Source of the DNA: an uncultured Candidatus Saccharibacteria bacterium
GTDB lineage: Bacteria > Patescibacteriota > Minisyncoccia > Phycocordibacterales > DATDSR01
NCBI GenBank assembly: GCA_964348575.1
Contig: CAYGDD010000001.1
Span: 1 to 49,511 of the forward strand
Reading direction: 5' to 3'
DNA length: 49,511 nucleotides
Position numbers and translations under genes: made by a program. The notes below the pieces were generated by a model, which was not told where the DNA came from, did no database searches, and saw nothing but the letters and a program-made list of their open reading frames with translations. The stretch's first letter is position 1. Every line of letters starts with the position of its first letter. Of this stretch, positions 13,999 through 33,594 are shown piece after piece.

Positions 13999-14050
13999 AA
14001 CTCGTAGTATACTCTATATAAGTTGTTAGTTGCTAGGTATCAGGTTTTGG

Positions 14051-14086
14051 CCTAACACCTAACACCTAATACTAATACCTAATCAC
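14051..14086. repeat. five degenerate tandem heptamers CCTAAYA just upstream of the LysW-like ORF
   Basis: cctaaca cctaaca cctaata ctaata cctaatca, ending 2 nt before ATG 14089. Confidence 0.8.
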
Positions 14087-14088
14087 TT

Positions 14089-14259
14089 ATGACTAAATCA
14101 CTAATTTGTCCGGAATGTAAAAATGACATAGACCTTGTGGCCTCTGGCGAACTTATGGTTGGCAAGATCATAGAGTGTGACTCATGCGGTATTACTCTAG
14201 AGGTCACAGACATTACTACTCCAACAATTACGGTTGAGATTGTAGACGAAGGCAAGTAG
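14089..14259 (+). CDS. LysW-like zinc-ribbon small protein (56 aa; below the ORF-track length cut-off)
   Basis: Hand translation gives MTKSLICPECKNDIDLVASGELMVGKIIECDSCGITLEVTDITTPTITVEIVDEGK. The CPEC...(19 aa)...CDSC ribbon with GxIIEC and LEV matches the LysW/amino-group-carrier pattern. The acidic tail ends in DEGK rather than EDWGE. Confidence 0.55.
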   Translation: MTKSLICPECKNDIDLVASGELMVGKIIECDSCGITLEVTDITTPTITVEIVDEGK

Positions 14260-15634
14260 CCTCTATCATTCCGCGGAAGCCATGGCTACCTAAGAAGACA
14301 ATTACCATAGGAGCCTCTGTTGCTAACTGCTCAACTAATTTATCATCGTCTGGGATGTAGCGCACGTCAAGATGTGCTCGTGATATTAGCTTGGCTAGGT
14401 CGGCTCCATCCATGGGTTTGGCAGTTCTGTCGGGGTCAATCTTCTGCTTACTTAGACGGGGGATAATGACACTGTCAGCAGCCGAGAAGGCCCCAGTATA
14501 ACGTGAGGCCATCTCGGCGTTGCGACCGCCGAGATTGGGTTCGAACACAGCCACAATCTTGCCACTATATATCTCACGCAAGTTCCTAAGTGTAGCTCTG
14601 GCCTTGTCGGGTGAGTGGGCTAGGTCGTTAATCACAGTTGTGCTCTTGGTTTGGCAGACTTTCTCTAGGCGTTGCCTAAGTCCAGCGAAGCTTCGGATAC
14701 TTGCTATTATACTTTTGGCTGGGATCCCTAGTTCAAGCGCTATGGCAAAGGCTCCGGTAATATTCTCGGCTTGGAAGTCGCCGATTAGACCACTTTCAAT
14801 GGCATAGGAATTGGTCTTATCTTTGATACCAAAGCGCAGACCAGTGCTAGATTGACCCACGCGTACATATTGATAATCGGCCGAGCTTTGACGTCCATAG
14901 GTTACTACTTTGGCCAAAGCCCCACCAAGTACACGCTTAACTCCGGTGTCGTTATCACAGGCGACAATTAGGCCGGTGGGTGGGATGGAGCTTACTAACT
15001 TCTCGAACACTGCGAAGTAGTGGTCCTCGGTGGGGTATAAGTCAGCGTGGTCCCATGATAAGCCTGTTAGTAGTAGGTGCGTAGGGTTATAGTAGACGAA
15101 CTTGGGCGTGGGGTCATCTCGCTCGCTCCGGTACTCATCTCCCTCAAAGACGCTCCACTCGCCATTGCCAATATGGGCAGGTCGCTCGCCCGATTTAGGT
15201 ATGCCCCCCATCATGTAGCTAGGGTCAAGTTTGGCTTGTGTAAATATGTGAGCAAGAAGAGCGGTAGAACTTGTCTTACCCCAAGTCCCCGCGACGACTA
15301 GCGACTTAGGTTTGATAAAATAATCTCTAAAGACTTGAGTATATGGTACAAGGGGGATGTTGTTGTCTTTTGCATACTGCCATTCGGGATTATTTTCCCC
15401 GGCGTAGCTAATGGGGATGACTATATCGGGTTTGCCCATCTTCTCGGGGTGCCAACCTGGGTAAAATTTTATACCAGCTTCTGTGAGTAAGTCCGAGGCC
15501 GGCGGATAGAAGCCCTTATCCGAGCCTGTTACCTTCCAGCCAGCATTGGCAAGGGCAAGGGCAAGGGCACTTGTGGCCTTGCCACAAATGCCAATGATGT
15601 GGGCATGCTTCTTGCTTGCTTGAGAGTTTGCCAT
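14228..15634 (-). CDS. mpl: Mur ligase family, Mpl-like (UDP-MurNAc:L-Ala-gamma-D-Glu-meso-DAP ligase type)
   Basis: N-terminus HIIGICGKATSALALALANAGWKVTGSDKGFYPPASDLLTEAGI resembles Mpl (GICG...TGSD..YPP...L...GI). Central P-loop AGTWGKTS and a Mur ligase C-terminal region are present. Confidence 0.7.
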   Translation of the reverse strand: MANSQASKKHAHIIGICGKATSALALALANAGWKVTGSDKGFYPPASDLLTEAGIKFYPGWHPEKMGKPDIVIPISYAGENNPEWQYAKDNNIPLVPYTQVFRDYFIKPKSLVVAGTWGKTSSTALLAHIFTQAKLDPSYMMGGIPKSGERPAHIGNGEWSVFEGDEYRSERDDPTPKFVYYNPTHLLLTGLSWDHADLYPTEDHYFAVFEKLVSSIPPTGLIVACDNDTGVKRVLGGALAKVVTYGRQSSADYQYVRVGQSSTGLRFGIKDKTNSYAIESGLIGDFQAENITGAFAIALELGIPAKSIIASIRSFAGLRQRLEKVCQTKSTTVINDLAHSPDKARATLRNLREIYSGKIVAVFEPNLGGRNAEMASRYTGAFSAADSVIIPRLSKQKIDPDRTAKPMDGADLAKLISRAHLDVRYIPDDDKLVEQLATEAPMVIVFLGSHGFRGMIEATCLRLQSQP

Positions 15635-15646
15635 TAGATAAGGATA

Positions 15647-16420
15647 TCACACTTGCTTAAGTGAAGTTTTCAATCTTTCTAGATCTGTTTGCCAACCAGT
15701 ATCTTTATCAAACCATTCAAGGCCACTAAACTGGAGCTTGTAAGTATCTGTGGGTCTTGTGGCCGAACCTAGGTATACATACTTATCTCCCTGCTCTTTA
15801 GCAAGCATAATAGCCATAAGCATCATGCCGAGACCCATACTCTTAGGCACACTAGTTATTGCATCTTTGCTTTGGGTACTTTCGGAGTCGGAGCTGTCAT
15901 TGTGTAAACTATAGAATGGATAAGAGTAATGCAGTAAGCCTTCCCCCGCATAGCAAATAGTATACCCCAACCCCAACTTAGCCGACGGTCCGCTAAGTAG
16001 TGGGTTTGAGAAGCTTATCAATGCATTGAAGTTACTTTTATCTGGGTCAGTTAGTAGCTCTTTTACTTTGTTAGCACTAAAGATGAGTTTACCCCGCGAA
16101 GCCTCGGGCGAAGTGGGGCCAAATTTGGTGCTATAGAAGTCTTTAGCCAGTTTAGCTATCTGCCAAGAGTAGTCCTCCATGGGCAGGCTCTCAACATTTA
16201 GCTCTATGCCCTCTAGTTGCTTAAGTATACGTCTGTTCTCACTAGATAGCTCAAATTTACTTAGGTCCACCCTCACACTCCGAGTCTGTTGCATAACACC
16301 CTTACCCTTACGGGTAAAGACGTAACCTTGATTATACAAATCGCGAACAGCCTCATCCGAAAAATCCGTAATAGTTTTCTCCTCCCAATTTAAATAGTTG
16401 TTTTCTCCTCCCTTTAACAT
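15647..16420 (-). CDS. ATE/Bpt-like (arginyl/leucyl-tRNA-protein transferase C-terminal fold) protein, 257 aa
   Basis: GYVFTRKGKG...RSVRVDLSKFELSSENRRILKQ parallels the Bpt/ATE pattern GFRRSG...IR...F.LS.SQKR.L. The C-terminal part HYSYPFYS...MGLGMMLMAIMLAKEQGDKYVYLG...YKLQFSGLEWF parallels SAxYxFFxP...SLGT...YLGY...YKxxF. Confidence 0.55.
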   Translation of the reverse strand: MLKGGENNYLNWEEKTITDFSDEAVRDLYNQGYVFTRKGKGVMQQTRSVRVDLSKFELSSENRRILKQLEGIELNVESLPMEDYSWQIAKLAKDFYSTKFGPTSPEASRGKLIFSANKVKELLTDPDKSNFNALISFSNPLLSGPSAKLGLGYTICYAGEGLLHYSYPFYSLHNDSSDSESTQSKDAITSVPKSMGLGMMLMAIMLAKEQGDKYVYLGSATRPTDTYKLQFSGLEWFDKDTGWQTDLERLKTSLKQV

Positions 16421-16443
16421 TTAACATTTAACATTTAACATTT
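16413..16443. repeat. (TTTAACA)x4 tandem heptamer filling the whole mraY / ATE-like intergenic gap
   Basis: Four perfect units at 16413-16440 plus a partial unit. On the minus strand this reads (AAATGTT)n, and the last unit supplies the ATG at 16420. Confidence 0.9.
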
Positions 16444-17598
16444 CTAATGGAGGCCGAGCCAGAGGCCAAAGATTACCGCGGCTAGGTGGATAAGCCAGAA
16501 GCGCATTACAATCTTCTCTTCGCTCCAGCCGATGAGTTCAAAGTGGTGGTGCAGAGGGGCCATCCGGAAGATGCGCCTACCAAGAAATGTGCGTCCAAAA
16601 ACTTGGATAATTACAGTCAGGGTCTCAACTACAAAAATGAAAGCAAGTAGCGGGAGCACAACTATAGCATTGGTAACAACCGCATTAATACCCATAAGGG
16701 CCCCGAGGCCTAGACTACCCACATCACCCATTTGGAAGCGGGCAGGTTTGACATTGAAATATGTGTAAGTAATAAGCGCGCCCATGGTTACGGCATCTAA
16801 GATGGCCACTTCGCGTAGGCCACTTGCCCAAGCCAAGATACCTAGAGCACCAAAAGTGGGTATGAGGGCTCCGCCCGAGAGGCCGTCTAGACCGTCAGAA
16901 ATGTTAACAGAGTTGGCGGCAGCGATGACTACAAAGATGACCAAGGGTACTATCCAGAAGCCGATGTTGATGTCTCCGCCAAAGGCGGACCCGCCTCCAG
17001 CGGAAAAGGGAAGAGCAATCTCACGCCAGTTCTCGCCTAGCTTCCAATAGATCCACCACGCACTAATGCCTCCAGCTATAAATTGGAGGAGCAACTTCTC
17101 ATGTACCTGCACGCCCTTACCGGGGTGTGAGCCTAGCCACATACTCATACGTTTGAAGGCCACCCAAGGCAGACTAAGGAAGAGCCAGATGCGCATAAGA
17201 GGGTTCTTGTGTACTTGGGCCAAGCGCAGGACGTGTGCGAGCTTGGGGTTACGTCGCTTACTGCCAAAGATGTTAAGCAGGTCGTCTAAACCACCCAAGA
17301 AGGCGGAGATGAGCATCACACCTATGGGGACGAAGGTGAAGGCTCGTGACCAGTTAAACAAGATAGTGATGACAGCTACCGTAACGACCACCAATAAGCC
17401 ACCCATAATGGGAGTACCCACTTTGTCTTTACGCGAATCAAGCGCAAGTGTAGTGTCATATGGGTTGCGTCTAGTGATGTCCCACTTGTAAAGATAGTGC
17501 GTAAGAATTGGAGCCCAAAGGAAAGCAATAAAACAAGAAAAGATGATATAGCCGAGGAAAGTGGTAAGTAGTCCCATGTCTTGCATAGAGCCTAACAT
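16444..17598 (-). CDS. mraY: phospho-N-acetylmuramoyl-pentapeptide transferase
   Basis: Polytopic membrane protein with the MraY motifs NSVNISDGLDGLSGG, MGDVGSLGLG and APLHHHFE. ATG 17598 is preferred over TTG 17604 because a GGGGGAGGG box lies 10 nt upstream of it. Confidence 0.9.
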   Translation of the reverse strand: MLGSMQDMGLLTTFLGYIIFSCFIAFLWAPILTHYLYKWDITRRNPYDTTLALDSRKDKVGTPIMGGLLVVVTVAVITILFNWSRAFTFVPIGVMLISAFLGGLDDLLNIFGSKRRNPKLAHVLRLAQVHKNPLMRIWLFLSLPWVAFKRMSMWLGSHPGKGVQVHEKLLLQFIAGGISAWWIYWKLGENWREIALPFSAGGGSAFGGDINIGFWIVPLVIFVVIAAANSVNISDGLDGLSGGALIPTFGALGILAWASGLREVAILDAVTMGALITYTYFNVKPARFQMGDVGSLGLGALMGINAVVTNAIVVLPLLAFIFVVETLTVIIQVFGRTFLGRRIFRMAPLHHHFELIGWSEEKIVMRFWLIHLAAVIFGLWLGLH

Positions 17599-17639
17599 TA
17601 GCAAAAATCCCTCCCCCTTTCAATCATATAAATGTCGAA

Positions 17640-17681
17640 CCCCCGAGACCGTACTGCGCAGGGGCAGATTAGTCTCGGGGG
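17640..17681 (-). terminator. hairpin 7 nt downstream of the cassette-1 gene stop (no clear T-tract)
   Basis: CCCCCGAGAC (17640-17649) pairs with GTCTCGGGGG (17672-17681). The loop contains the palindrome CTGCGCAG. Confidence 0.4.
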
Positions 17682-17688
17682 CGTGTGG

Positions 17689-18177
17689 CTACTCGGTGGG
17701 AGCGTCCTCTGCGGGAGTGTTCTCATCATCTTCCCAAGGATTGGCTTGGGGTATGGCGAACGTCGGCTTAACTTCGCCATTGACGATCATCCAAAGGAAT
17801 TGTACTGCTTCCTGGATGGATCGTGCAGAAAGGCTGATATCCTGCGTCCATGTTTGCCGGCCGTTCCCAGTGGAACTTTGACCACATAGCCGGGTCTCTA
17901 TCTTTGCAAATTTTTCGTTATGGGTAGGTGCCAGGTAATAGCCTGGTGACATCTTTCCCATATCAAGGTGGTACCACAGGCTAACACCTGCCACCCACTT
18001 GTCAGGTAGGCCGGGTGTTTCTTGGGTAGACCTCGGGGCAATCGGATCGAAATGATTATAGTCGAGGTAGAAATCGCCTCGCTCGCACTGTTTCGGCTTC
18101 CTTCCCTCCAGCGCCTCTTTGAGGTACGGGTCGGTCTCAGGGTTGCCTGCGAGGTAGAGCCTTGTCGTCCCGATCAT
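17689..18177 (-). CDS. hypothetical protein (162 aa) in GC-richer cassette 1
   Basis: AGGAGG (18182-18187) lies 4 nt before ATG 18177. The gene has its own promoter and a downstream hairpin. I recognise no family. Confidence 0.6.
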   Translation of the reverse strand: MIGTTRLYLAGNPETDPYLKEALEGRKPKQCERGDFYLDYNHFDPIAPRSTQETPGLPDKWVAGVSLWYHLDMGKMSPGYYLAPTHNEKFAKIETRLCGQSSTGNGRQTWTQDISLSARSIQEAVQFLWMIVNGEVKPTFAIPQANPWEDDENTPAEDAPTE

Positions 18178-18243
18178 GTTGCCTCCTGTGTCTCAGGTCA
18201 TGTAGGGGATTAGTCCCCAGTCAGCCCAAAACGTCCACTACAG

Positions 18244-18272
18244 AGCATATCACATGAATAAACACTTGTCAA
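18244..18272 (-). promoter_or_regulatory. near-consensus sigma70 promoter of cassette 1
   Basis: On the minus strand, TTGACA (18272-18267), a 17-nt spacer, then TATGCT (18249-18244). It lies immediately after the stop of the upstream NlpC/P60 gene. Confidence 0.55.
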
Positions 18273-18276
18273 ATAT

Positions 18277-18960
18277 TTAGAACCAGTTTAGGCGTCGTAG
18301 TTCTCCGGGGGGGTTACTTGAGTCTATTTGCTCTATGCGTACGCCATGCCCATAACGGCCATCCTCTGGTAGGGCCACTGATTGGGCTATCTCTATTTCG
18401 CCATTTTCAATTTTGATTATTACCATTATGTGATTACGTGGGGTGCCGGTTTGCTTGGCATATTTGTTAATAACAAAAAAGTCTCCCGCCCTAGCCTCAT
18501 TGATCTTGATTTGCCTACTGTTACTTGCGTCAGCAAAGACAGCTACACTCATGTTCTCTACTGGGCGCTTAACAAATAATTTTCTAATAATAGAAAGTAC
18601 GTTATTGGCCTTAGGGAAAGATAGCTTATCTACCAAGTGACCATACCCACGGCCTACGCCTTCGGCCTCAAGGATGTAATATACGAAACCAGAACAGTCT
18701 ATGCCCAAGTTGTGGTCTACCAAGAACTTAGTCTTATTTTCTGGCGAGAGTTTAGCTAGTTCGACTTTACTTTTGTGAGCAATTAGCAGGGCCTCCTCCA
18801 CAATCTCCTCTGCACTCCCTTTGCCCACTTGTACTCGCAGAGCCCCACGCACCTTCTGGCGCTCGTTGGTAAAGTATGGGCACTTAACACCCAGATCTGG
18901 TAAGCGAAGGAATTCTGCAAGCACTAAGTTGGCCTCATGGCTTAGTTTGGAATTGATCAT
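18277..18960 (-). CDS. NlpC/P60 (C40) family peptidase-like protein
   Basis: Catalytic-Cys motif GIDCSGFVYYIL, then ARAGDFFVI...NHIMVIIK (His motif) in canonical order. ATGA overlap with the upstream ATP-grasp gene. Confidence 0.7.
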   Translation of the reverse strand: MINSKLSHEANLVLAEFLRLPDLGVKCPYFTNERQKVRGALRVQVGKGSAEEIVEEALLIAHKSKVELAKLSPENKTKFLVDHNLGIDCSGFVYYILEAEGVGRGYGHLVDKLSFPKANNVLSIIRKLFVKRPVENMSVAVFADASNSRQIKINEARAGDFFVINKYAKQTGTPRNHIMVIIKIENGEIEIAQSVALPEDGRYGHGVRIEQIDSSNPPGELRRLNWF

Positions 18961-20099
18961 GACACAAGCTTTGCTACTTCTTCGCCTAATGGTGAAAGTT
19001 TATTATGCCCAGCCATCAAGCTTACACTATTAGACCTTATCTGGAGTAAGTCCTCGCCCGGCTTCTCGGGCACAGACTCAACAGTACTAAGCCCCAGTAC
19101 TTGTAACTTGCCCACGGCATCTTCTGCGATGGCCACACTTGACTGTCTGCGTATAAGTCGCGCTCCAGCTGTGATCATAGCAGGACTACTTTCAAAAGGT
19201 ATGTTCGCCAAGGATGCGATATGAGATTCAAAGGTTGTGGGCAGTTCTGGCACGAGCGACTTCTGTAGCATGGATTCGAAGGTTACAGATGCAGTCTGCC
19301 GTGCGTTGACCTCTATTAGGTACAGTTCGTCAGTATTCTTGTCGAGTATCAGGTCTACTCCATAGCAACCTCTCCAACCATCTCGCTGCATACGCTCGCC
19401 AATTTTGGTAGAAATTTCTCGGGCCTTTCTTTGTTGCTCGGCTGTTAGTAATTTATTCACAATACCCCAATCGTTGCCAATGGTAGCAAAGGGATTATCC
19501 GTAAAGGCAGGGAGGCCAGTAATTTGGTAGCTAAGACTGCCTAGGATTACACGCGTACCTGTCACCACGTTGTTGCTGGTAAAGACTGGTCCATCTATAA
19601 ACTTACTTATACGCACAGGTCTATCGGGGAAGTCGGTGGCAAGTTCGCGCACTTGCGCTTCGCTATCTTGAAGTATAGTGCCAAGACCAGAGTGCGAATG
19701 GTTAAATTGGACAATCACTGGCGTACCATCATATACAAGCTCGCTACATCGGCGGATGGCAAAGGGTACGAGTAAGTTGGCCAGTTCGCCCAACCACTTG
19801 GTCTGACTGATCTTGGCTTCTACGCGCTCGGCCAAGTCCGCACTGGGGTTAAGTAAGTTCCAATTGTTAAGCTTGCATACCTGCTCGGCCTGGCGATTAG
19901 TCTTAAATATCACTAGGTTCTTCTCGGGTTTATTTGCAAATAGCTCAGCCACACGCGGGTCTGTCAATAATTCACGAGTGCTCCTGCTCTCATCACTAAA
20001 GATCTCGTAGCCCGCCGTGCTTAGGCTATCGGCACGTTCGGCTTGGCGGGTAATATATAAGACTGGATGCTCTTTAAGATATGTGTATAATTCTTCCAT
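18957..20099 (-). CDS. ATP-grasp family ligase (380 aa), substrate unknown
   Basis: C-terminal ATP-grasp signature GWRGCYGVDLILDKNTDELYLIEVNARQTAS. Confidence 0.7.
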   Translation of the reverse strand: MEELYTYLKEHPVLYITRQAERADSLSTAGYEIFSDESRSTRELLTDPRVAELFANKPEKNLVIFKTNRQAEQVCKLNNWNLLNPSADLAERVEAKISQTKWLGELANLLVPFAIRRCSELVYDGTPVIVQFNHSHSGLGTILQDSEAQVRELATDFPDRPVRISKFIDGPVFTSNNVVTGTRVILGSLSYQITGLPAFTDNPFATIGNDWGIVNKLLTAEQQRKAREISTKIGERMQRDGWRGCYGVDLILDKNTDELYLIEVNARQTASVTFESMLQKSLVPELPTTFESHIASLANIPFESSPAMITAGARLIRRQSSVAIAEDAVGKLQVLGLSTVESVPEKPGEDLLQIRSNSVSLMAGHNKLSPLGEEVAKLVS

Positions 20100-20183
20100 C
20101 CTATTAGAAGTTAGCTGTTTTAATGTATATAATGAAAAACATGATTATTGACTATATTGGCTTAGACTCCTAACAGGACCCAT

Positions 20184-20876
20184 ATGGGCATACTTTACAT
20201 TGTCGGGACACCTATTGGCAACTTGGAAGATATTACTATGCGAGCCTTGCGCATTTTACGCGAGGTAGATGTAATATTTTGCGAAGACACCAGAGTTACG
20301 GCTAGGCTACTTAAGCGCTACAATATAACTAAGCCTCTAAAACAATTTAACGCTCACACCCGCGTCTCTGGCTTCCAAAATCTAGCTTCTAGCCTCCAGA
20401 GTATTGCTTATGTAAGTGACGCCGGTACTCCCGGCTTATCGGACCCTGGAGCAGAGCTGGTGCGCGCCAGCTTGGCTCTTGGCTTTGAGGTGGTGAGCGT
20501 GCCGGGGCCTTCGGCTATCTCGGCCATCATCTCACTTTCGGACACCACCATCACCAGCTTTACCTTCCACGGCTTCCCGCCCCACAAGAAGGGGAGAGAA
20601 ACTCTCTTCAAACAGATTGCCCTCTCACTTAGCGGACCGTCGGCTAAGTCAGATAGATCTATGGGTCTGGCGGAGATTTTTTACGAATCGCCTAATCGCA
20701 TTGTTAAAGCTCTTACTCAATTAGAGAAGTATGCCCCAGATAGGCGAGTGTTGGTAGGTCGTGAGCTGACCAAAAAGTTTGAGGAAGTTTTGCGAGGCAC
20801 AGTCACCGAAGTTCGCACCCTCCTTGAATCTGACCCCAGCAAACAAAGAGGCGAGTTCGTCGTCCTAGTTCTTTAA
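20184..20876 (+). CDS. rsmI: 16S rRNA (cytidine1402-2'-O)-methyltransferase
   Basis: LYIVGTPIGNLEDITMRALRILREVDVIFCEDTR, SDAGTPGLSDPG and FYESPNR are typical RsmI / tetrapyrrole-methylase-fold motifs. Confidence 0.9.
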   Translation: MGILYIVGTPIGNLEDITMRALRILREVDVIFCEDTRVTARLLKRYNITKPLKQFNAHTRVSGFQNLASSLQSIAYVSDAGTPGLSDPGAELVRASLALGFEVVSVPGPSAISAIISLSDTTITSFTFHGFPPHKKGRETLFKQIALSLSGPSAKSDRSMGLAEIFYESPNRIVKALTQLEKYAPDRRVLVGRELTKKFEEVLRGTVTEVRTLLESDPSKQRGEFVVLVL

Positions 20877-20892
20877 TCCTGTCGCATGACTT

Positions 20893-20923
20893 CAACTGTT
20901 GGACATTCGATGTCCAACAGTTG
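20893..20923. other. 31-bp near-perfect palindrome (14-bp arms, 3-nt centre)
   Basis: CAACTGTTGGACAT tcg ATGTCCAACAGTTG, starting 17 nt after the rsmI stop. No T-tract follows. Confidence 0.9.
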
Positions 20924-20967
20924 CAGAAATGGGTATTTGTGGTAGCTTGGTCCTTGGAGGTAGCAAA

Positions 20968-21312
20968 ATGGCAGGAAATGGAAGTGGTAGTAACGGCGGT
21001 AGCTTGGCTCTACAGTTTGAGGTCCCAGCTCGTACGGGCCCTACGGCAGAGCAAGTCCTTGGCTTGCAAAAGATTGTGTGCAAGCTCCGAGGTATCAAGA
21101 GCAGGAGGAGTAAGACGAAAGTAGTGCCGACGCTCCTGCTCGCCGGTTTGCAGTATCTCATCGTCTTGAACGCCAAGAACCCAGACAACCCGGAGTTGGA
21201 CGAGGCTTACGGCTATCTTTGCGACTTGGGGTACGACTTTTCGGAAATTCCGTCGCTCGTGGCCAGCTTCCTCATCGTCACCTGCGCCAACAACGCCACC
21301 TGGAAATTTTAA
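20968..21312 (+). CDS. hypothetical protein (114 aa) in GC-richer cassette 2
   Basis: GGAGG (20956-20960) lies 7 nt before ATG 20968. The longer ORF from 20899 would start inside the palindrome. A strong terminator follows. I recognise no family. Confidence 0.55.
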   Translation: MAGNGSGSNGGSLALQFEVPARTGPTAEQVLGLQKIVCKLRGIKSRRSKTKVVPTLLLAGLQYLIVLNAKNPDNPELDEAYGYLCDLGYDFSEIPSLVASFLIVTCANNATWKF

Positions 21313-21315
21313 CCC

Positions 21316-21358
21316 CCCCTAGATAAGACCTCAGAGGTCTTATCTAGGGGTTTCTTTT
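21316..21358 (+). terminator. rho-independent terminator
   Basis: 15-bp perfect stem CCCCTAGATAAGACC (21316-21330) / GGTCTTATCTAGGGG (21336-21350), loop TCAGA, then TTTCTTTT. Confidence 0.85.
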
Positions 21359-21381
21359 AATTTTGTGGTATGATATCTGTC

Positions 21382-29382: not shown

Positions 29383-30958
29383 AAAAATTGTTGTAGTACT
29401 CCCAGCGTATAACGCTAGTCGTACTCTCTTGCGCACATTGCAGGCGATACCCAGAGATGTTGTTGACGACATAATTTTGGTTGATGACTGTAGCAGGGAT
29501 GATACAGTCGAGGTATCGCGCTCTTTGGGGATTAAAACATTTGTACACGAGAAGAATCTAGGCTACGGCGCCAATCAGAAGACTTGCTATAGCGAGGCTC
29601 TTGGGTTGGGCGCAGTGATCGTGGTGATGGTCCACCCAGACTTCCAATACGACCCCAAATATATTCCGGCCATGGTGGCGCCCATAGCAAGGGGCGAGGC
29701 AGACGCAGTCTTTGGCTCGCGTATGGTCCACCCAGAGGACGCCCTAAAGGGGGGCATGCCAAGATGGAAGTGGTATGCTAACAAATTTTTAACCATGGTT
29801 GAGAATTTTATTTTGAGACTTGATCTCACTGAGTATCATTCGGGATTTCGCGCTTATCACAAGCGAGTATTAGAATTACCCATAGAGCTTAACTCCAATA
29901 ACTTTGTCTTTGATACAGAGATTATTGTGCAGATGGCGGTAGCCAGAATGCGCATTTTGGAAATTCCCATCAGTACGCGCTATTTCCCTGAGGCCTCGAT
30001 GATCGGCTTTGGAAAGTCGGTTAGATACGGTCTATCTATTTTGGTTGTTATGATAAAGTATATTCTTCATAAACTAGGCTTTCATCGTGCACAATTTACT
30101 TTCGATAAAATCAAGTCGGGTGTAACTTGTAGGCTTTGTGGTGAAAGGAAAGTGCAATTGCTGAAGAGGGCTACAGCAGAACCAAAGAAGCTCTTTGCAA
30201 AACCTTACGCCATTACCGAAGAAGGTGCAGGGGAGCATGGAGATATCTATAAGTGTCTAACTTGCCGGGCCTCATTTGTTCAAAGTACAGGGGAGCTAGA
30301 GGGACTTTTGCACAATTACTACAAGCAAGCCCCCTTAGATCTGGTATATATCAAAGATGTAGTAGGCAGGAAGAAGACTGCCCGGGAAGTATTAAAGTAC
30401 GTGCAGGGGAAGACGCTTCTAGACTTTGGTTGCAACACAGGCATCTTCTTAGACCAAGCGCGCACACTTGGTTATGACGTTACTGGGGTAGAGGCTTCTA
30501 GTGTAGCTCGCGCTTATGCCAAGCAGAATTATAATCTAGATATTGTAGAAGCTATTCCAGAGGGCAAGCAGTACGATGTTATCACTATCTTTGATGTGTT
30601 AGAACATGTAAGTGAGCCAAAAGCTCTTGTCCAGACACTAAGTTCTAAGCTTACCCCCGGGGGGGCAATAGTTATTACTGCGCCAGATATTGGTAGTCCT
30701 ACGGCGCGTCTAATGGGCAAGAGGTGGCACGCTCTTGTGCCTGGCCACTTAACATACTTTAACAACCACAGCATTTCATACCTGGCTCGCGTGCTTGGTA
30801 TGAAGGTGGTTAAGACTATCTGGTATAAGCGCTACTTGACTGTTGGCTCGATGATAAATAGGTTACTCCGAAGGCAAGATTTGCGAGTGCCGATTATCGG
30901 TGATTTTGTCATTGCGGGTAATACTTATGACGAACCCTTATGGATACTAAAAAAATAA
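29369..30958 (+). CDS. fusion protein: GT2 glycosyltransferase + C4 zinc ribbon + class I SAM methyltransferase
   Basis: GT2 region: KIVVVLPAYNAS...ILVDDCSRDDT...VMVHPD. Ribbon: CRLCGERK...(about 33 aa)...CLTCRASF. Methyltransferase region: LLDFGCNTGIFL...ITIFDVLEHV. Confidence 0.7.
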   Translation: MLQGKKIVVVLPAYNASRTLLRTLQAIPRDVVDDIILVDDCSRDDTVEVSRSLGIKTFVHEKNLGYGANQKTCYSEALGLGAVIVVMVHPDFQYDPKYIPAMVAPIARGEADAVFGSRMVHPEDALKGGMPRWKWYANKFLTMVENFILRLDLTEYHSGFRAYHKRVLELPIELNSNNFVFDTEIIVQMAVARMRILEIPISTRYFPEASMIGFGKSVRYGLSILVVMIKYILHKLGFHRAQFTFDKIKSGVTCRLCGERKVQLLKRATAEPKKLFAKPYAITEEGAGEHGDIYKCLTCRASFVQSTGELEGLLHNYYKQAPLDLVYIKDVVGRKKTAREVLKYVQGKTLLDFGCNTGIFLDQARTLGYDVTGVEASSVARAYAKQNYNLDIVEAIPEGKQYDVITIFDVLEHVSEPKALVQTLSSKLTPGGAIVITAPDIGSPTARLMGKRWHALVPGHLTYFNNHSISYLARVLGMKVVKTIWYKRYLTVGSMINRLLRRQDLRVPIIGDFVIAGNTYDEPLWILKK

Positions 30959-32643
30959 TTTTAAGTATTCTATTTTTGGCATTTGTTATCCGGGTGGTGG
31001 GTATTAGCTATGGCTTACCTATGACTCTTATACATGATGAGCCGGGCTTAGTCTTCGGGGCTCTCAAGATGTTAGAGCTTAAGAGTGTCCTACCCTTTAT
31101 GCACTTGGCTGACTTTGCCGGCACTTTATACTACCCGCCTTATATATCATATTTGTACCTACCGTTTTTTGCTATGGCTATTGGGGTAAAACTTCTTACT
31201 GTTACAAGTAATTTTGAATTGCTTAAAAATTTGCTAATTGCTGACCCCACTGTATTTTATCTGGGAGCTCGGTTTATTTCGGTCCTCTTGGGCACTGCTA
31301 CAGTCTACTTGGTTTATCTTATCGGCAGGCAGATGTGGCAGAGTAAGCGCTCCGGACTCTACTCGGCCCTTATGCTCAGTCTCTCGTACATCCACACCAT
31401 CTTCTCGCATTGGGGCAGACACTGGGTGTCGGTCACGTTTATATTTACGCTTGCTATGTATATGCTATCCCGGCGTGACATTGCGCAAAGCAAGCGTTAC
31501 TTCTGGGCCACATTAATTTTGGGCATTGGCATCGGCTTTAACTTCCAGATGACCATTGGTATCTTGCTCTTGCCTCTGTGGTATCTCTTGTATGACAAGC
31601 AGAGGCTTCGGGATGCTCTCTCTGCCACCTGGGTGTGGAAGCTTGTTTTGCTCTTTGTTAGCCTGCTTGGCTTGGCCTACCTTATCTATCCTGCCGGCTT
31701 CGTAGTCACAGCTAATGACGTTTATGGGGCCTCTAAGGGCCTAGGGGGCCTGTTACTTAGCTACGCCTTCCATGCCTCCACCCTGCTCTTTAACGACCCT
31801 ATTTTGCTCATATTTAGCTTACTGGGATTATATTACGCTTCTCGGCATAGGCGAGAGACACTCACACTTATTTACTTTAGTATAATCTATGTGGCGGTGT
31901 TCTACTTCCTGCTGTTCCAGGTTGATCGTTATATTATGATGCTCTTACCCATACTGGCCCTCTACGCTGGCTATGGCCTTGAACGGATAATTGCCAACAA
32001 GGATGACGTTAATATTTCTACTCCTTCCGATCTTTCTATGTCCAAGAAAATTTTTGTAACATGTATTTTTACTGCAATGCTTGTCCCAATAGTTAAAGCA
32101 GATTATTTGCTATATCTAAATGACACGCGTTCTGTAGCTAACAAATGGATGATGAGCAATTTAGCCCCGGGGACAAAAGTATTTGTCTACGGAGATGCTT
32201 GGCGCATGCCTACCAATGCAAGTGCGGTAGACGAATTAGAAGTGTTGGACCCTGACGCTCTGCGGAGTGTAGATAAGGCCGAGAGAGAGTTAGACAACAA
32301 GCAAGGCCTGCACGTCCTTAATGCATATAATATCAAAGACAAACAATTCTTCGCCAACCTAGAAGCATATCTGAAAGATAATAACTATCAGTACCTAGCC
32401 CTAGACCTAGAGCAAGCCAAGCGCAAAGGCTTTACTCATTTACTTACTCTTGGTGAGCCTGTGCCTTTTGAAGGAGGCGTAGCTAAGTGGGAGGGATATA
32501 TGGATAGGTCGCGCGACGTGGCTAACTGGTTTGGTGGGGGACTTGGAGCGCGCGAAACTATCCCCTGGTTCGCAGGAGGCTTCACCACTCTGTACTCCCT
32601 GCCCCAAAACGGTCCCAGCATAATTATCTACAAACTCAACTAA
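30940..32643 (+). CDS. GT-C fold membrane glycosyltransferase (ArnT/PMT-like)
   Basis: About 11 hydrophobic segments in the first 390 aa, with the early loop motif HDEPGLVFGA. The C-terminal domain is soluble. Confidence 0.65.
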   Translation: MDTKKIILSILFLAFVIRVVGISYGLPMTLIHDEPGLVFGALKMLELKSVLPFMHLADFAGTLYYPPYISYLYLPFFAMAIGVKLLTVTSNFELLKNLLIADPTVFYLGARFISVLLGTATVYLVYLIGRQMWQSKRSGLYSALMLSLSYIHTIFSHWGRHWVSVTFIFTLAMYMLSRRDIAQSKRYFWATLILGIGIGFNFQMTIGILLLPLWYLLYDKQRLRDALSATWVWKLVLLFVSLLGLAYLIYPAGFVVTANDVYGASKGLGGLLLSYAFHASTLLFNDPILLIFSLLGLYYASRHRRETLTLIYFSIIYVAVFYFLLFQVDRYIMMLLPILALYAGYGLERIIANKDDVNISTPSDLSMSKKIFVTCIFTAMLVPIVKADYLLYLNDTRSVANKWMMSNLAPGTKVFVYGDAWRMPTNASAVDELEVLDPDALRSVDKAERELDNKQGLHVLNAYNIKDKQFFANLEAYLKDNNYQYLALDLEQAKRKGFTHLLTLGEPVPFEGGVAKWEGYMDRSRDVANWFGGGLGARETIPWFAGGFTTLYSLPQNGPSIIIYKLN

Positions 32644-32855
32644 CCGGAGGAGGACCGTCCTCCTCCGGCAGGAGTAGGAGGGATATATGGATAGGTCGCG
32701 CGACGTGGCTAACTGGTTTGGCGGGGGACTTGGAGCGCGCGAAACTATCCCCTGGTTCGCAGGAGGCTTCACCACTCTGTACTCCCTGCCCCAAAACGGT
32801 CCCAGCATAATTATCTACAAACTCAACTAACCGGAGGAGGACCGTCCTCCTCCGG
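32486..32855 (+). repeat. tandem direct duplication (period 187 bp) of the gene 3' end plus its terminator hairpin
   Basis: About 32486-32668 is repeated at about 32673-32855. I see one internal mismatch (GGTTTGGTGGGGG versus GGTTTGGCGGGGG). Each copy ends in CCGGAGGAGGAccgTCCTCCTCCGG. Confidence 0.9.
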
Positions 32856-32860
32856 TTTTA
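32831..32860 (+). terminator. rho-independent terminator (copy 2 of the hairpin, the only one followed by a T-run)
   Basis: 11-bp stem CCGGAGGAGGA/TCCTCCTCCGG with a 3-nt loop, then TTTTA. Confidence 0.7.
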
Positions 32861-32876
32861 AGCCTGATCATAGCCA

Positions 32877-32906
32877 TTGACAGTTAGCTTGTCTGTGATG
32901 TATAAT
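32877..32906 (+). promoter_or_regulatory. consensus sigma70 promoter of cassette 3
   Basis: TTGACA (32877-32882), an 18-nt spacer, then TATAAT (32901-32906). Confidence 0.6.
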
Positions 32907-32967
32907 ACACATTGAATCTGAACCCGGTCTAGCGCTTTGCTATGGCCACTAACAACAGGAGGAAACC

Positions 32968-33534
32968 GTGAAAAAGGTTCTTGCTCTATTCGCCATTGTC
33001 GGCGTGGCTATCACCACCTGCTACTTCTTCCCCAGCTTCACTCAGTTGTCGTTCGACACCAGGACGGCATCCTGGCCAAGTGGCGCGGTCGAGCAGATGG
33101 TCGTGGTGTGCGTCGTCCCAACGGAACAGGAGCCGGATCACGTTATGGTCTGGATGCACTCCAAGGTCATGACGGGCACGATCGACCTCTATCCCGTCAA
33201 GAACGACATCGCCGGTCGCTGGTGCCGGGAGTTGGCCTTCAGTATCAACGACAGGGACAGTGGCGAGTTTCTCGACGTCCAACTCCATGCGAGCAGGCTC
33301 ACCGCCAAGCTCTCGCGGGTCGAGCTCTGGCATCCGGTCGACGAGAATGAGATCGCGTGCGCTGTTCGGACCGACGACTTGGATACTGGAGGGTCGGGTG
33401 GCAAGTACGCCCTGAACCTCCGACCAACCGGCAACATTCCGAGAGAACAGCTCCCGGTGCGCAGGTTGTTGGACGCAGGACTGTTCCTCCAAGCGATCAA
33501 GGGTCAGGCGGTCTATCCATCACCCCCCATATAA
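32968..33534 (+). CDS. hypothetical membrane/secreted protein (188 aa) in GC-richer cassette 3
   Basis: AGGAGG (32957-32962) lies 5 nt before GTG 32968. N-terminal hydrophobic segment VLALFAIVGVAITTCYFF. Strong G/C preference at the third codon position. I recognise no family. Confidence 0.6.
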   Translation: MKKVLALFAIVGVAITTCYFFPSFTQLSFDTRTASWPSGAVEQMVVVCVVPTEQEPDHVMVWMHSKVMTGTIDLYPVKNDIAGRWCRELAFSINDRDSGEFLDVQLHASRLTAKLSRVELWHPVDENEIACAVRTDDLDTGGSGGKYALNLRPTGNIPREQLPVRRLLDAGLFLQAIKGQAVYPSPPI

Positions 33535-33541
33535 CCCCCAG

Positions 33542-33594
33542 AGCCCCGGATCCTTTTCGCCACCTTCGGCGGATTGGGTTCGGGGCTATTTTCA
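33542..33594 (+). terminator. candidate terminator of cassette 3
   Basis: Outer stem AGCCCCG (33542-33548)/CGGGGCT (33581-33587) encloses an inner CGCC..GGCG hairpin and is followed by ATTTTC. Confidence 0.4.

Follow-up and report, generated by a model that had tools for sequence, protein, structure and literature searches.

A segment of ~670 bases that separates the NlpC/P60 and mraY genes, at ~17612–18276 of the window (the whole 49,511-nucleotide stretch of DNA analysed), is probably a real, lineage-specific insertion: a single autonomous, co-directional unit that encodes an orphan protein and lies in a short slot between two transcription units. The window is one whole contig of a 42-contig Patescibacteria MAG of 0.68 Mb, whose relatives are named Candidatus Paceibacterota, and the surrounding gene order (ATP-grasp, NlpC/P60, mraY, FemX/ATE-like and Mpl-like Mur ligase) is conserved across the phylum. 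The evidence for insertion from comparison with related genomes was stronger than that from composition, and we present it first.

We compared the NlpC/P60–mraY junction of the window with that of three genomes from the same genus. In two of these (G002 and G003) the junction is empty, with the NlpC/P60 gene joined to mraY across gaps of 28 and 12 nt, respectively, between the listed ORFs (7 and −9 nt by a tblastn-based estimate). The third (G001) carries a 330-bp insert at the same point and of the same design as that of the window, consisting of TTGACA...TGcTATAAT, TAGGAGG, a 68-aa ORF, and a GC hairpin with a partial T-run; direct comparison revealed no sequence shared by this insert and the window's cassette. 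An earlier reading of the DNA from its letters alone (the sequence-only reading) had described a cassette inserted inside the peptidoglycan operon and had proposed checking its presence or absence in sister genomes. That check showed absence from two sisters and an unrelated occupant in the third, and the claim of an insertion thus holds relative to sister genomes, whereas its placement does not, as the cassette sits in the gap upstream of mraY and not strictly inside an operon. Of the Patescibacteria loci that contain both genes (n = 63), 34 have a tight junction (<150 nt between the genes) and 29 (46%) hold inserts of 150–3300 nt. The content of these 29 inserts is heterogeneous, several are G+C-richer than their own locus, and none contains a relative of the 162-aa protein. 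Because the tight junction is the majority state and the two genes are joined in sister genomes, the alignments point to the tight state as ancestral and to the window segment as a derived insertion, at a junction that is a recurrent insertion hotspot.

The insert contains one self-contained gene. Its elements and the features that bound it are as follows, in order of transcription.

18279–18277, minus strand: stop codon (TAA) of the NlpC/P60 gene, read from the sequence
18267..18272, minus strand: −35 box TTGACA, starting 4 nt past the NlpC/P60 stop codon
18244..18252, minus strand: TG-extended −10 box (TGaTATGCT), with TATGCT at 18249–18244 and a 17-nt spacer to the −35 box
18178..18237, minus strand: 5′ leader of ~60 nt, from a predicted transcription start site
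18182..18187, minus strand: Shine–Dalgarno (SD) sequence AGGAGG, 4 nt ahead of the ATG at 18177
17689..18177, minus strand: ORF for a 162-aa orphan protein, from ATG at 18177 to TAG at 17689
17639..17682, minus strand: GC-rich hairpin past the ORF stop codon, with a 12-bp outer stem and a 4-bp inner stem
17584..17603, minus strand: remnant of a leaderless mraY promoter (TGcTAATGT, 8 nt, ATG at 17586), placed by alignment with sister genomes and marking the downstream limit of the insert

In a consensus scan, the putative cassette promoter, of the sigma-70 type with a perfect −35, was the top match in 14000–21000, scoring 10/12 plus the TG extension. Folding predicted that the leader is no more structured than shuffled sequence (z = 0.30) and leaves the SD unpaired, and Rfam gave no credible family in the leader or the hairpin. 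The hairpin has a perfect 10-bp core that becomes 12 bp once folded, and the 96-nt tail that contains it had a folding energy of −38.4 kcal/mol (z = −2.6). This stable 12-bp GC hairpin has no U-tract and was not called by a terminator scan; given the missing U-tract, termination there is probably weak or partial. The sequence-only reading had correctly described TTGACA-17-TATGCT, AGGAGG-4-ATG, and a 162-aa product, together with a 10-bp GC hairpin and five overlapping long ORFs, which correspond to the five ORFs of at least 50 aa that overlap inside the segment in the ORF list.

Compared to the rest of the genome, the composition of the segment is borderline or mildly atypical rather than that of a significant outlier, and alone it does not carry the case for foreign origin. 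The G+C content of 17630–18276 is 53.2%, compared to 45.3% for the 49.5-kb window and 46.7% for the 677-kb genome. This value is +1.65 SD from the genome (SD of 3.9 points for equal-sized windows across the whole genome), and 4.6% of equal-sized genome windows, or ~85 such regions, are as G+C-rich or richer. The segment is clearly G+C-richer than the NlpC/P60 gene (46.0%) but hardly richer than mraY (50.5%; GC3 of 0.561 against 0.589). By its di-, tri-, and tetranucleotide distances from the genome profile, the segment ranks no higher than the top 8–10% (top 9% for tetranucleotides). Codon usage was more telling than G+C or oligonucleotide composition: the host-trained codon score of the ORF, 0.127 bits per codon, ranks it within the lowest 3.5% of the 736 genes called, and its codon usage is the least host-like among local genes. 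The GC1/GC2/GC3 values of the ORF (0.57/0.45/0.59) are gene-like. The segment had been read as visibly G+C-richer than its flanks, which holds only weakly, the excess being clear over NlpC/P60 and slight over mraY; the windowed G+C and tetranucleotide profiles proposed at the same time, to be judged against the genome average, gave a borderline answer. The further suggestion of a high-GC donor found no support, as 53% G+C does not point to one and no donor was found. Foreign origin is plausible, based on the design of the cassette and the sister-genome comparison, but no more than plausible given the weakly atypical composition. Several other parts of the MAG (contigs C15 551–6348, C42, C21 1301–3298, and C39 901–2348) have G+C contents of 60–66%, far above that of the cassette, and may be larger foreign islands or binning contamination.

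The predicted 162-aa product would be a soluble, acidic, ~18-kDa orphan protein (18.3 kDa, pI 4.9, GRAVY −0.71) with no hydrophobic or membrane segment and an acidic C-terminal tail that contains seven D/E and no K/R residues in the last 25 positions. It had been described as belonging to no recognisable family, and searches of Pfam, NCBIfam, PHROGs, and PADLOC, with lenient thresholds included, agreed. No homologue was detected among ~15 billion proteins. A word-indexed search of 5.8 billion clustered proteins returned only the query itself, and a full HMMER search of 1.84 billion representatives returned one extra match, P0002, which we judged spurious; this is a tandem-repeat protein whose score was the sum of ten weak 20-residue matches (each with E ~0.06–0.7 pairwise). 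PDB sequences gave nothing meaningful; metagenome contigs, viral contigs, and phage and plasmid records gave no match to the protein; and the exact junction sequence was not found in metagenome contigs. When 400 genomes of the order were searched in six frames, the only match was at chance level and contained four stop codons. The protein search that had been expected to identify a donor lineage thus yielded no homologue or donor in any collection searched. Single-sequence AlphaFold2 gave no confident fold (pLDDT 38.5).

The evidence that the ORF is coding is moderate. Its codon score is the highest of the six frames, and opposite-strand ORFs had codon scores of ~1 or less and no family match. 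An ORF of this length occurred in 0.8% of dinucleotide-preserving shuffles, and the reading frame is bracketed exactly by the promoter and SD on one side and the hairpin on the other. Against this, the ORF shows weak three-base periodicity (chi-square p = 0.02; 6th percentile among similar-sized native genes).

To place the cassette's signals against the host norm, we scanned our own gene calls over the whole genome. Hexamers resembling a −10 box (at least 5/6 matches) peaked 6–7 nt before start codons, with a frequency of 8.4% at 6 nt vs ~0.8% in the background (~10-fold), and 253 of 723 genes had such a box 4–9 nt upstream vs 111–130 in displaced control windows. These patterns indicate that leaderless transcription is likely to be widespread in the host genome. 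An SD 4-mer is missing in 557 of 736 genes (76%), and AGGAGG is found in 34 of the 736. The contrast first noticed locally, between the canonical signals of the cassette and the leaderless pattern of neighbouring genes, is therefore a genome-wide one, visible in both the −10 peak and the share of genes that have no SD. Native promoters have a weak −35 element and, in half of the boxes, a TG-extended −10; as the cassette promoter is also TG-extended at −10, host RNA polymerase would be expected to use it.

Genes with a strong SD form a distinct minority of the genome. Upstream of an ATG that begins an ORF of ≥60 aa, GGAGG occurs ~2-fold as often as base permutations of the same motif. The strong-SD genes have ~50% vs 46% G+C, are shorter, use codons that are less host-like (p = 6e-12), and almost never have a leaderless −10 box. 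In thirteen genes a strong SD accompanies a promoter scoring 10/12 or higher; these genes average 52.2% G+C vs 46.5% (p = 2e-4), and their products are mixed, with some resembling known proteins by eye and others being orphans.

No 16S gene was found in the window's MAG, and we examined the 16S 3′ ends of two same-genus genomes, which are identical to each other.

L089 2925–2938 (G001) and L091 ~2118–2135 (G002): 16S end GGAAUUAUUCAAGU, in which the CCUCC core is missing

E. coli has GGAUCACCUCCUU at this position. No CCUCC was present in the ~50 nt downstream of either sister 16S end, and upstream motifs able to pair with the sister 16S tail were not separable from the −10 box signal. Because the 16S of these sister species lacks CCUCC, pairing between an SD and 16S is improbable in the genus, and the SD of the cassette is probably unable to work in this way. 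Both genomes nevertheless hold AGGAGG-led mini-genes with terminators. The SD would then be best read as a signature of an exchangeable accessory gene pool or of a donor, and not as the normal initiation signal of the host, as a 16S tail of the type seen in the sister species would offer it no pairing partner. In G002, contig 12 (L090/L091, 8237–10640) has a 16S gene that is split in the Rfam match, with model positions 9–873 spread over 1782 nt, which implies an insertion of ~900 nt; insertions of this kind are common in CPR rRNA genes.

The anti-SD motif is reported to have been lost in about half of Parcubacteria (Tsurumaki et al. 2022, RNA 28:1041; PMC9297842). The host's genus resembles that subgroup, with two sister species that lack CCUCC and a majority of host genes that lack an SD; that paper describes the rRNA loss, and the genome studied here adds a minority of AGGAGG-led accessory cassettes that persists. 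We regard as doubtful the further idea that the AGGAGG-led cassettes of this anti-SD-less genus are more than unadapted imports and are maintained as a separate expression tier or circulating pool. In that case, the SD-like element would either act independently of pairing to 16S, perhaps as a purine-rich ribosome landing site free of structure, or be retained because the cassettes shuttle between anti-SD-bearing and anti-SD-less Patescibacteria via permissive gaps.

These results also bear on whether the insert is real and its ORF non-functional, such that the segment would be foreign DNA that is decaying or never became adapted, that persists because it is neutral where it lies, in a permissive gap, and that has a useless SD. 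Weak periodicity, a low codon score, the failure to find a homologue or a confident fold, and the missing anti-SD in the genus are all consistent with this explanation. We nonetheless consider it unlikely, as the ORF is of a length seldom reached by chance, and is bracketed exactly by expression signals, and as sisters that lack the anti-SD also carry intact AGGAGG-led mini-genes with terminators, which argues that such units are maintained.

The preferred reading, an autonomous unit with an orphan gene, also specifies where in the cluster the insert lies. The mraY starts of sister genomes are preceded by TGaTATAGT-6-ATG in G002 and G003 and by TGcTATATT-6-GTG in G001, each of which appears to be a TG-extended −10 box at the distance expected of a leaderless mRNA. 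The mraY ATG of the window, at 17586, aligned with the start in the sisters, and its −10 box is weaker (TAATGT, 8 nt to the ATG) than theirs (TATAGT/TATATT, 6 nt). Because mraY has a leaderless promoter in sister genomes, the peptidoglycan "operon" would consist of two transcription units, the first containing the ATP-grasp and NlpC/P60 genes and the second containing mraY and the FemX/ATE-like and Mpl-like genes. By this assignment, the insert fills the one non-coding stretch available, which is bounded by a stop codon and the promoter of the following unit. Other cassettes of the genome end in a U-run that is missing behind the hairpin of this one, which makes a degree of read-through plausible, and we envisage that some transcripts probably run past the hairpin into mraY, whose own leaderless −10 is weaker than in the sisters.

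If read-through of this kind were the selected function, the insert would be regulatory, a strong promoter that drives mraY and downstream genes, and the ORF would be incidental. Co-directionality with mraY, the weakened mraY −10, and a hairpin without a U-tract in a genome whose other cassettes end in a hairpin plus U-run are in keeping with this proposal. However, a very stable 12-bp GC hairpin and a spacer of ~90 nt separate the ORF from mraY, a TG-extended −10 remnant still precedes mraY, and the proposal leaves both the SD and the long ORF unexplained; we consider it quite improbable.

Two further explanations would deny that the segment is a derived insertion, and both appear to be very improbable. 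A chimeric join of a foreign 670-bp fragment is conceivable in a MAG, as the cassette sequence occurs on a single contig and in no independent assembly, but would require two chimeric joins within a gap of <30 nt that left both genes unharmed, in a 49.5-kb contig where synteny runs on at both sides, and at a site where the independently assembled G001 carries a different insert and where inserts are found at 46% of Patescibacteria loci. A cassette ancestral to the genus and lost in the sisters can be imagined because the closest sampled relatives share only 70–75% MraY identity, but the tight junction is the majority state in the phylum, the inserts are mutually unrelated, and the six-frame search of 400 genomes of the order found no trace of the ORF.

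As to how a lineage-specific insertion could have arisen, the ends of the insert contain no repeats, TIRs, or target duplication and are unique in the genome, and the insert contains no recombinase, transposase, or integrase, its sole ORF having no family. We propose that no dedicated recombinase took part in the arrival of the cassette and that the most likely route was illegitimate or flank-mediated recombination into the permissive gap. Insertion of an IS, MITE, or transposon was considered and rejected, there being no TIRs, no target-site duplication, and no multiple copies. A common mobile backbone was also rejected, as comparison of the cassette with the others in the genome and with that of G001 revealed no shared sequence.

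The cassette resembles two classes of accessory element. Phage morons (Hendrix-type) are autonomous promoter–ORF–terminator units between genes that are adjacent in relatives. Like them, the cassette is an extra single gene with its own predicted promoter and a hairpin downstream, between genes adjacent in relatives, and its composition and codon usage are somewhat off from those of its neighbours, a contrast that is weak here. Unlike them, it resides in a bacterial chromosome, in a core cell-wall cluster, and its hairpin lacks a U-tract; its neighbours are MraY, a Mur ligase, an ATP-grasp enzyme, and NlpC/P60, and we found no PHROG or phage-collection match that would indicate a phage or prophage setting. 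Minimal mobile elements of Neisseria are differing cassettes between the same conserved flanks, exchanged via transformation and homologous recombination. The window locus is similar in having conserved flanks (NlpC/P60 and mraY) with unrelated cassettes in each species and in having no recombinase, inverted repeat, or target duplication in the cassette; it differs in that species rather than strains are compared and in that no second genome in the collections searched carries the window's cassette. By analogy, the anatomy of the cassette recalls a moron and its population pattern a minimal mobile element, and it belongs fully to neither class. The product also resembles taxonomically restricted ORFans, being short, without a homologue by sequence or profile, and encoded by weakly host-like codons. 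Unlike ORFans, the window ORF has complete textbook expression signals and lies in demonstrably inserted DNA; given that location, it was not born from local non-coding sequence. We therefore describe the segment as an orphan accessory cassette of moron-like type, ordinary among those that fill such gaps in Patescibacteria genomes.

Taken alone, the cassette is one more orphan accessory gene, and the picture of cell-wall synthesis is unchanged. Its value is as a clean, bounded example, at a site that is empty in two sisters and has an unrelated occupant in a third, and it illustrates the way in which ultra-small Patescibacteria acquire genes, as self-contained units placed in the rare non-coding gaps that separate transcription units. 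The puzzle that it brings into sharper focus is a more interesting thread than the cassette itself: textbook SD sites precede accessory genes in a genus whose 16S lacks the pairing sequence.

Additional variation was observed at the next junction of the cluster. The mraY and FemX-like genes are tightly joined in the window and in G003, and in G001 (L009 2303–2725) and G002 (L007 4233–4747) the junction between them holds small AGGAGG-led ORFs of ~85–90 aa with hairpin-plus-U terminators; with this junction occupied in two sisters, several junctions of the cluster are variable within the genus. In a Candidatus Taylorbacteria genome (G030), a PD-(D/E)XK (PDDEXK_3) gene lies between mraY and the FemX/ATE-like gene (L010 3373–3777), and the NlpC/P60–mraY junction holds an unrelated 117-aa ORF.

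Other units were noted within the window and elsewhere in the genome. Positions 20877–21370 of the window contain another self-contained unit, with GGAGG, 8 nt, an ATG at 20968, and a 114-aa ORF with a GC3 of 0.68; it ends in a perfect hairpin and a T-rich tail (ggggTTTCTTTTA), and the gene next to it has a leaderless start (TGgTATGAT plus 7 nt). Positions 32486–32668 and 32673–32855 are a 183-nt tandem duplication, 99% identical, that holds the 3′ end of the gene at 30940–32643 and its CCGGAGGAGGACCGTCCTCCTCCGG terminator hairpin and lies just upstream of a cassette of 60% G+C at 32860–33594. On contig C39, the genes at 996–1136 and 1345–2067 share a near-identical upstream block, CG(C)GAGCGACAGGGTTGACAA, that includes the −35 box, which suggests a reused promoter module.
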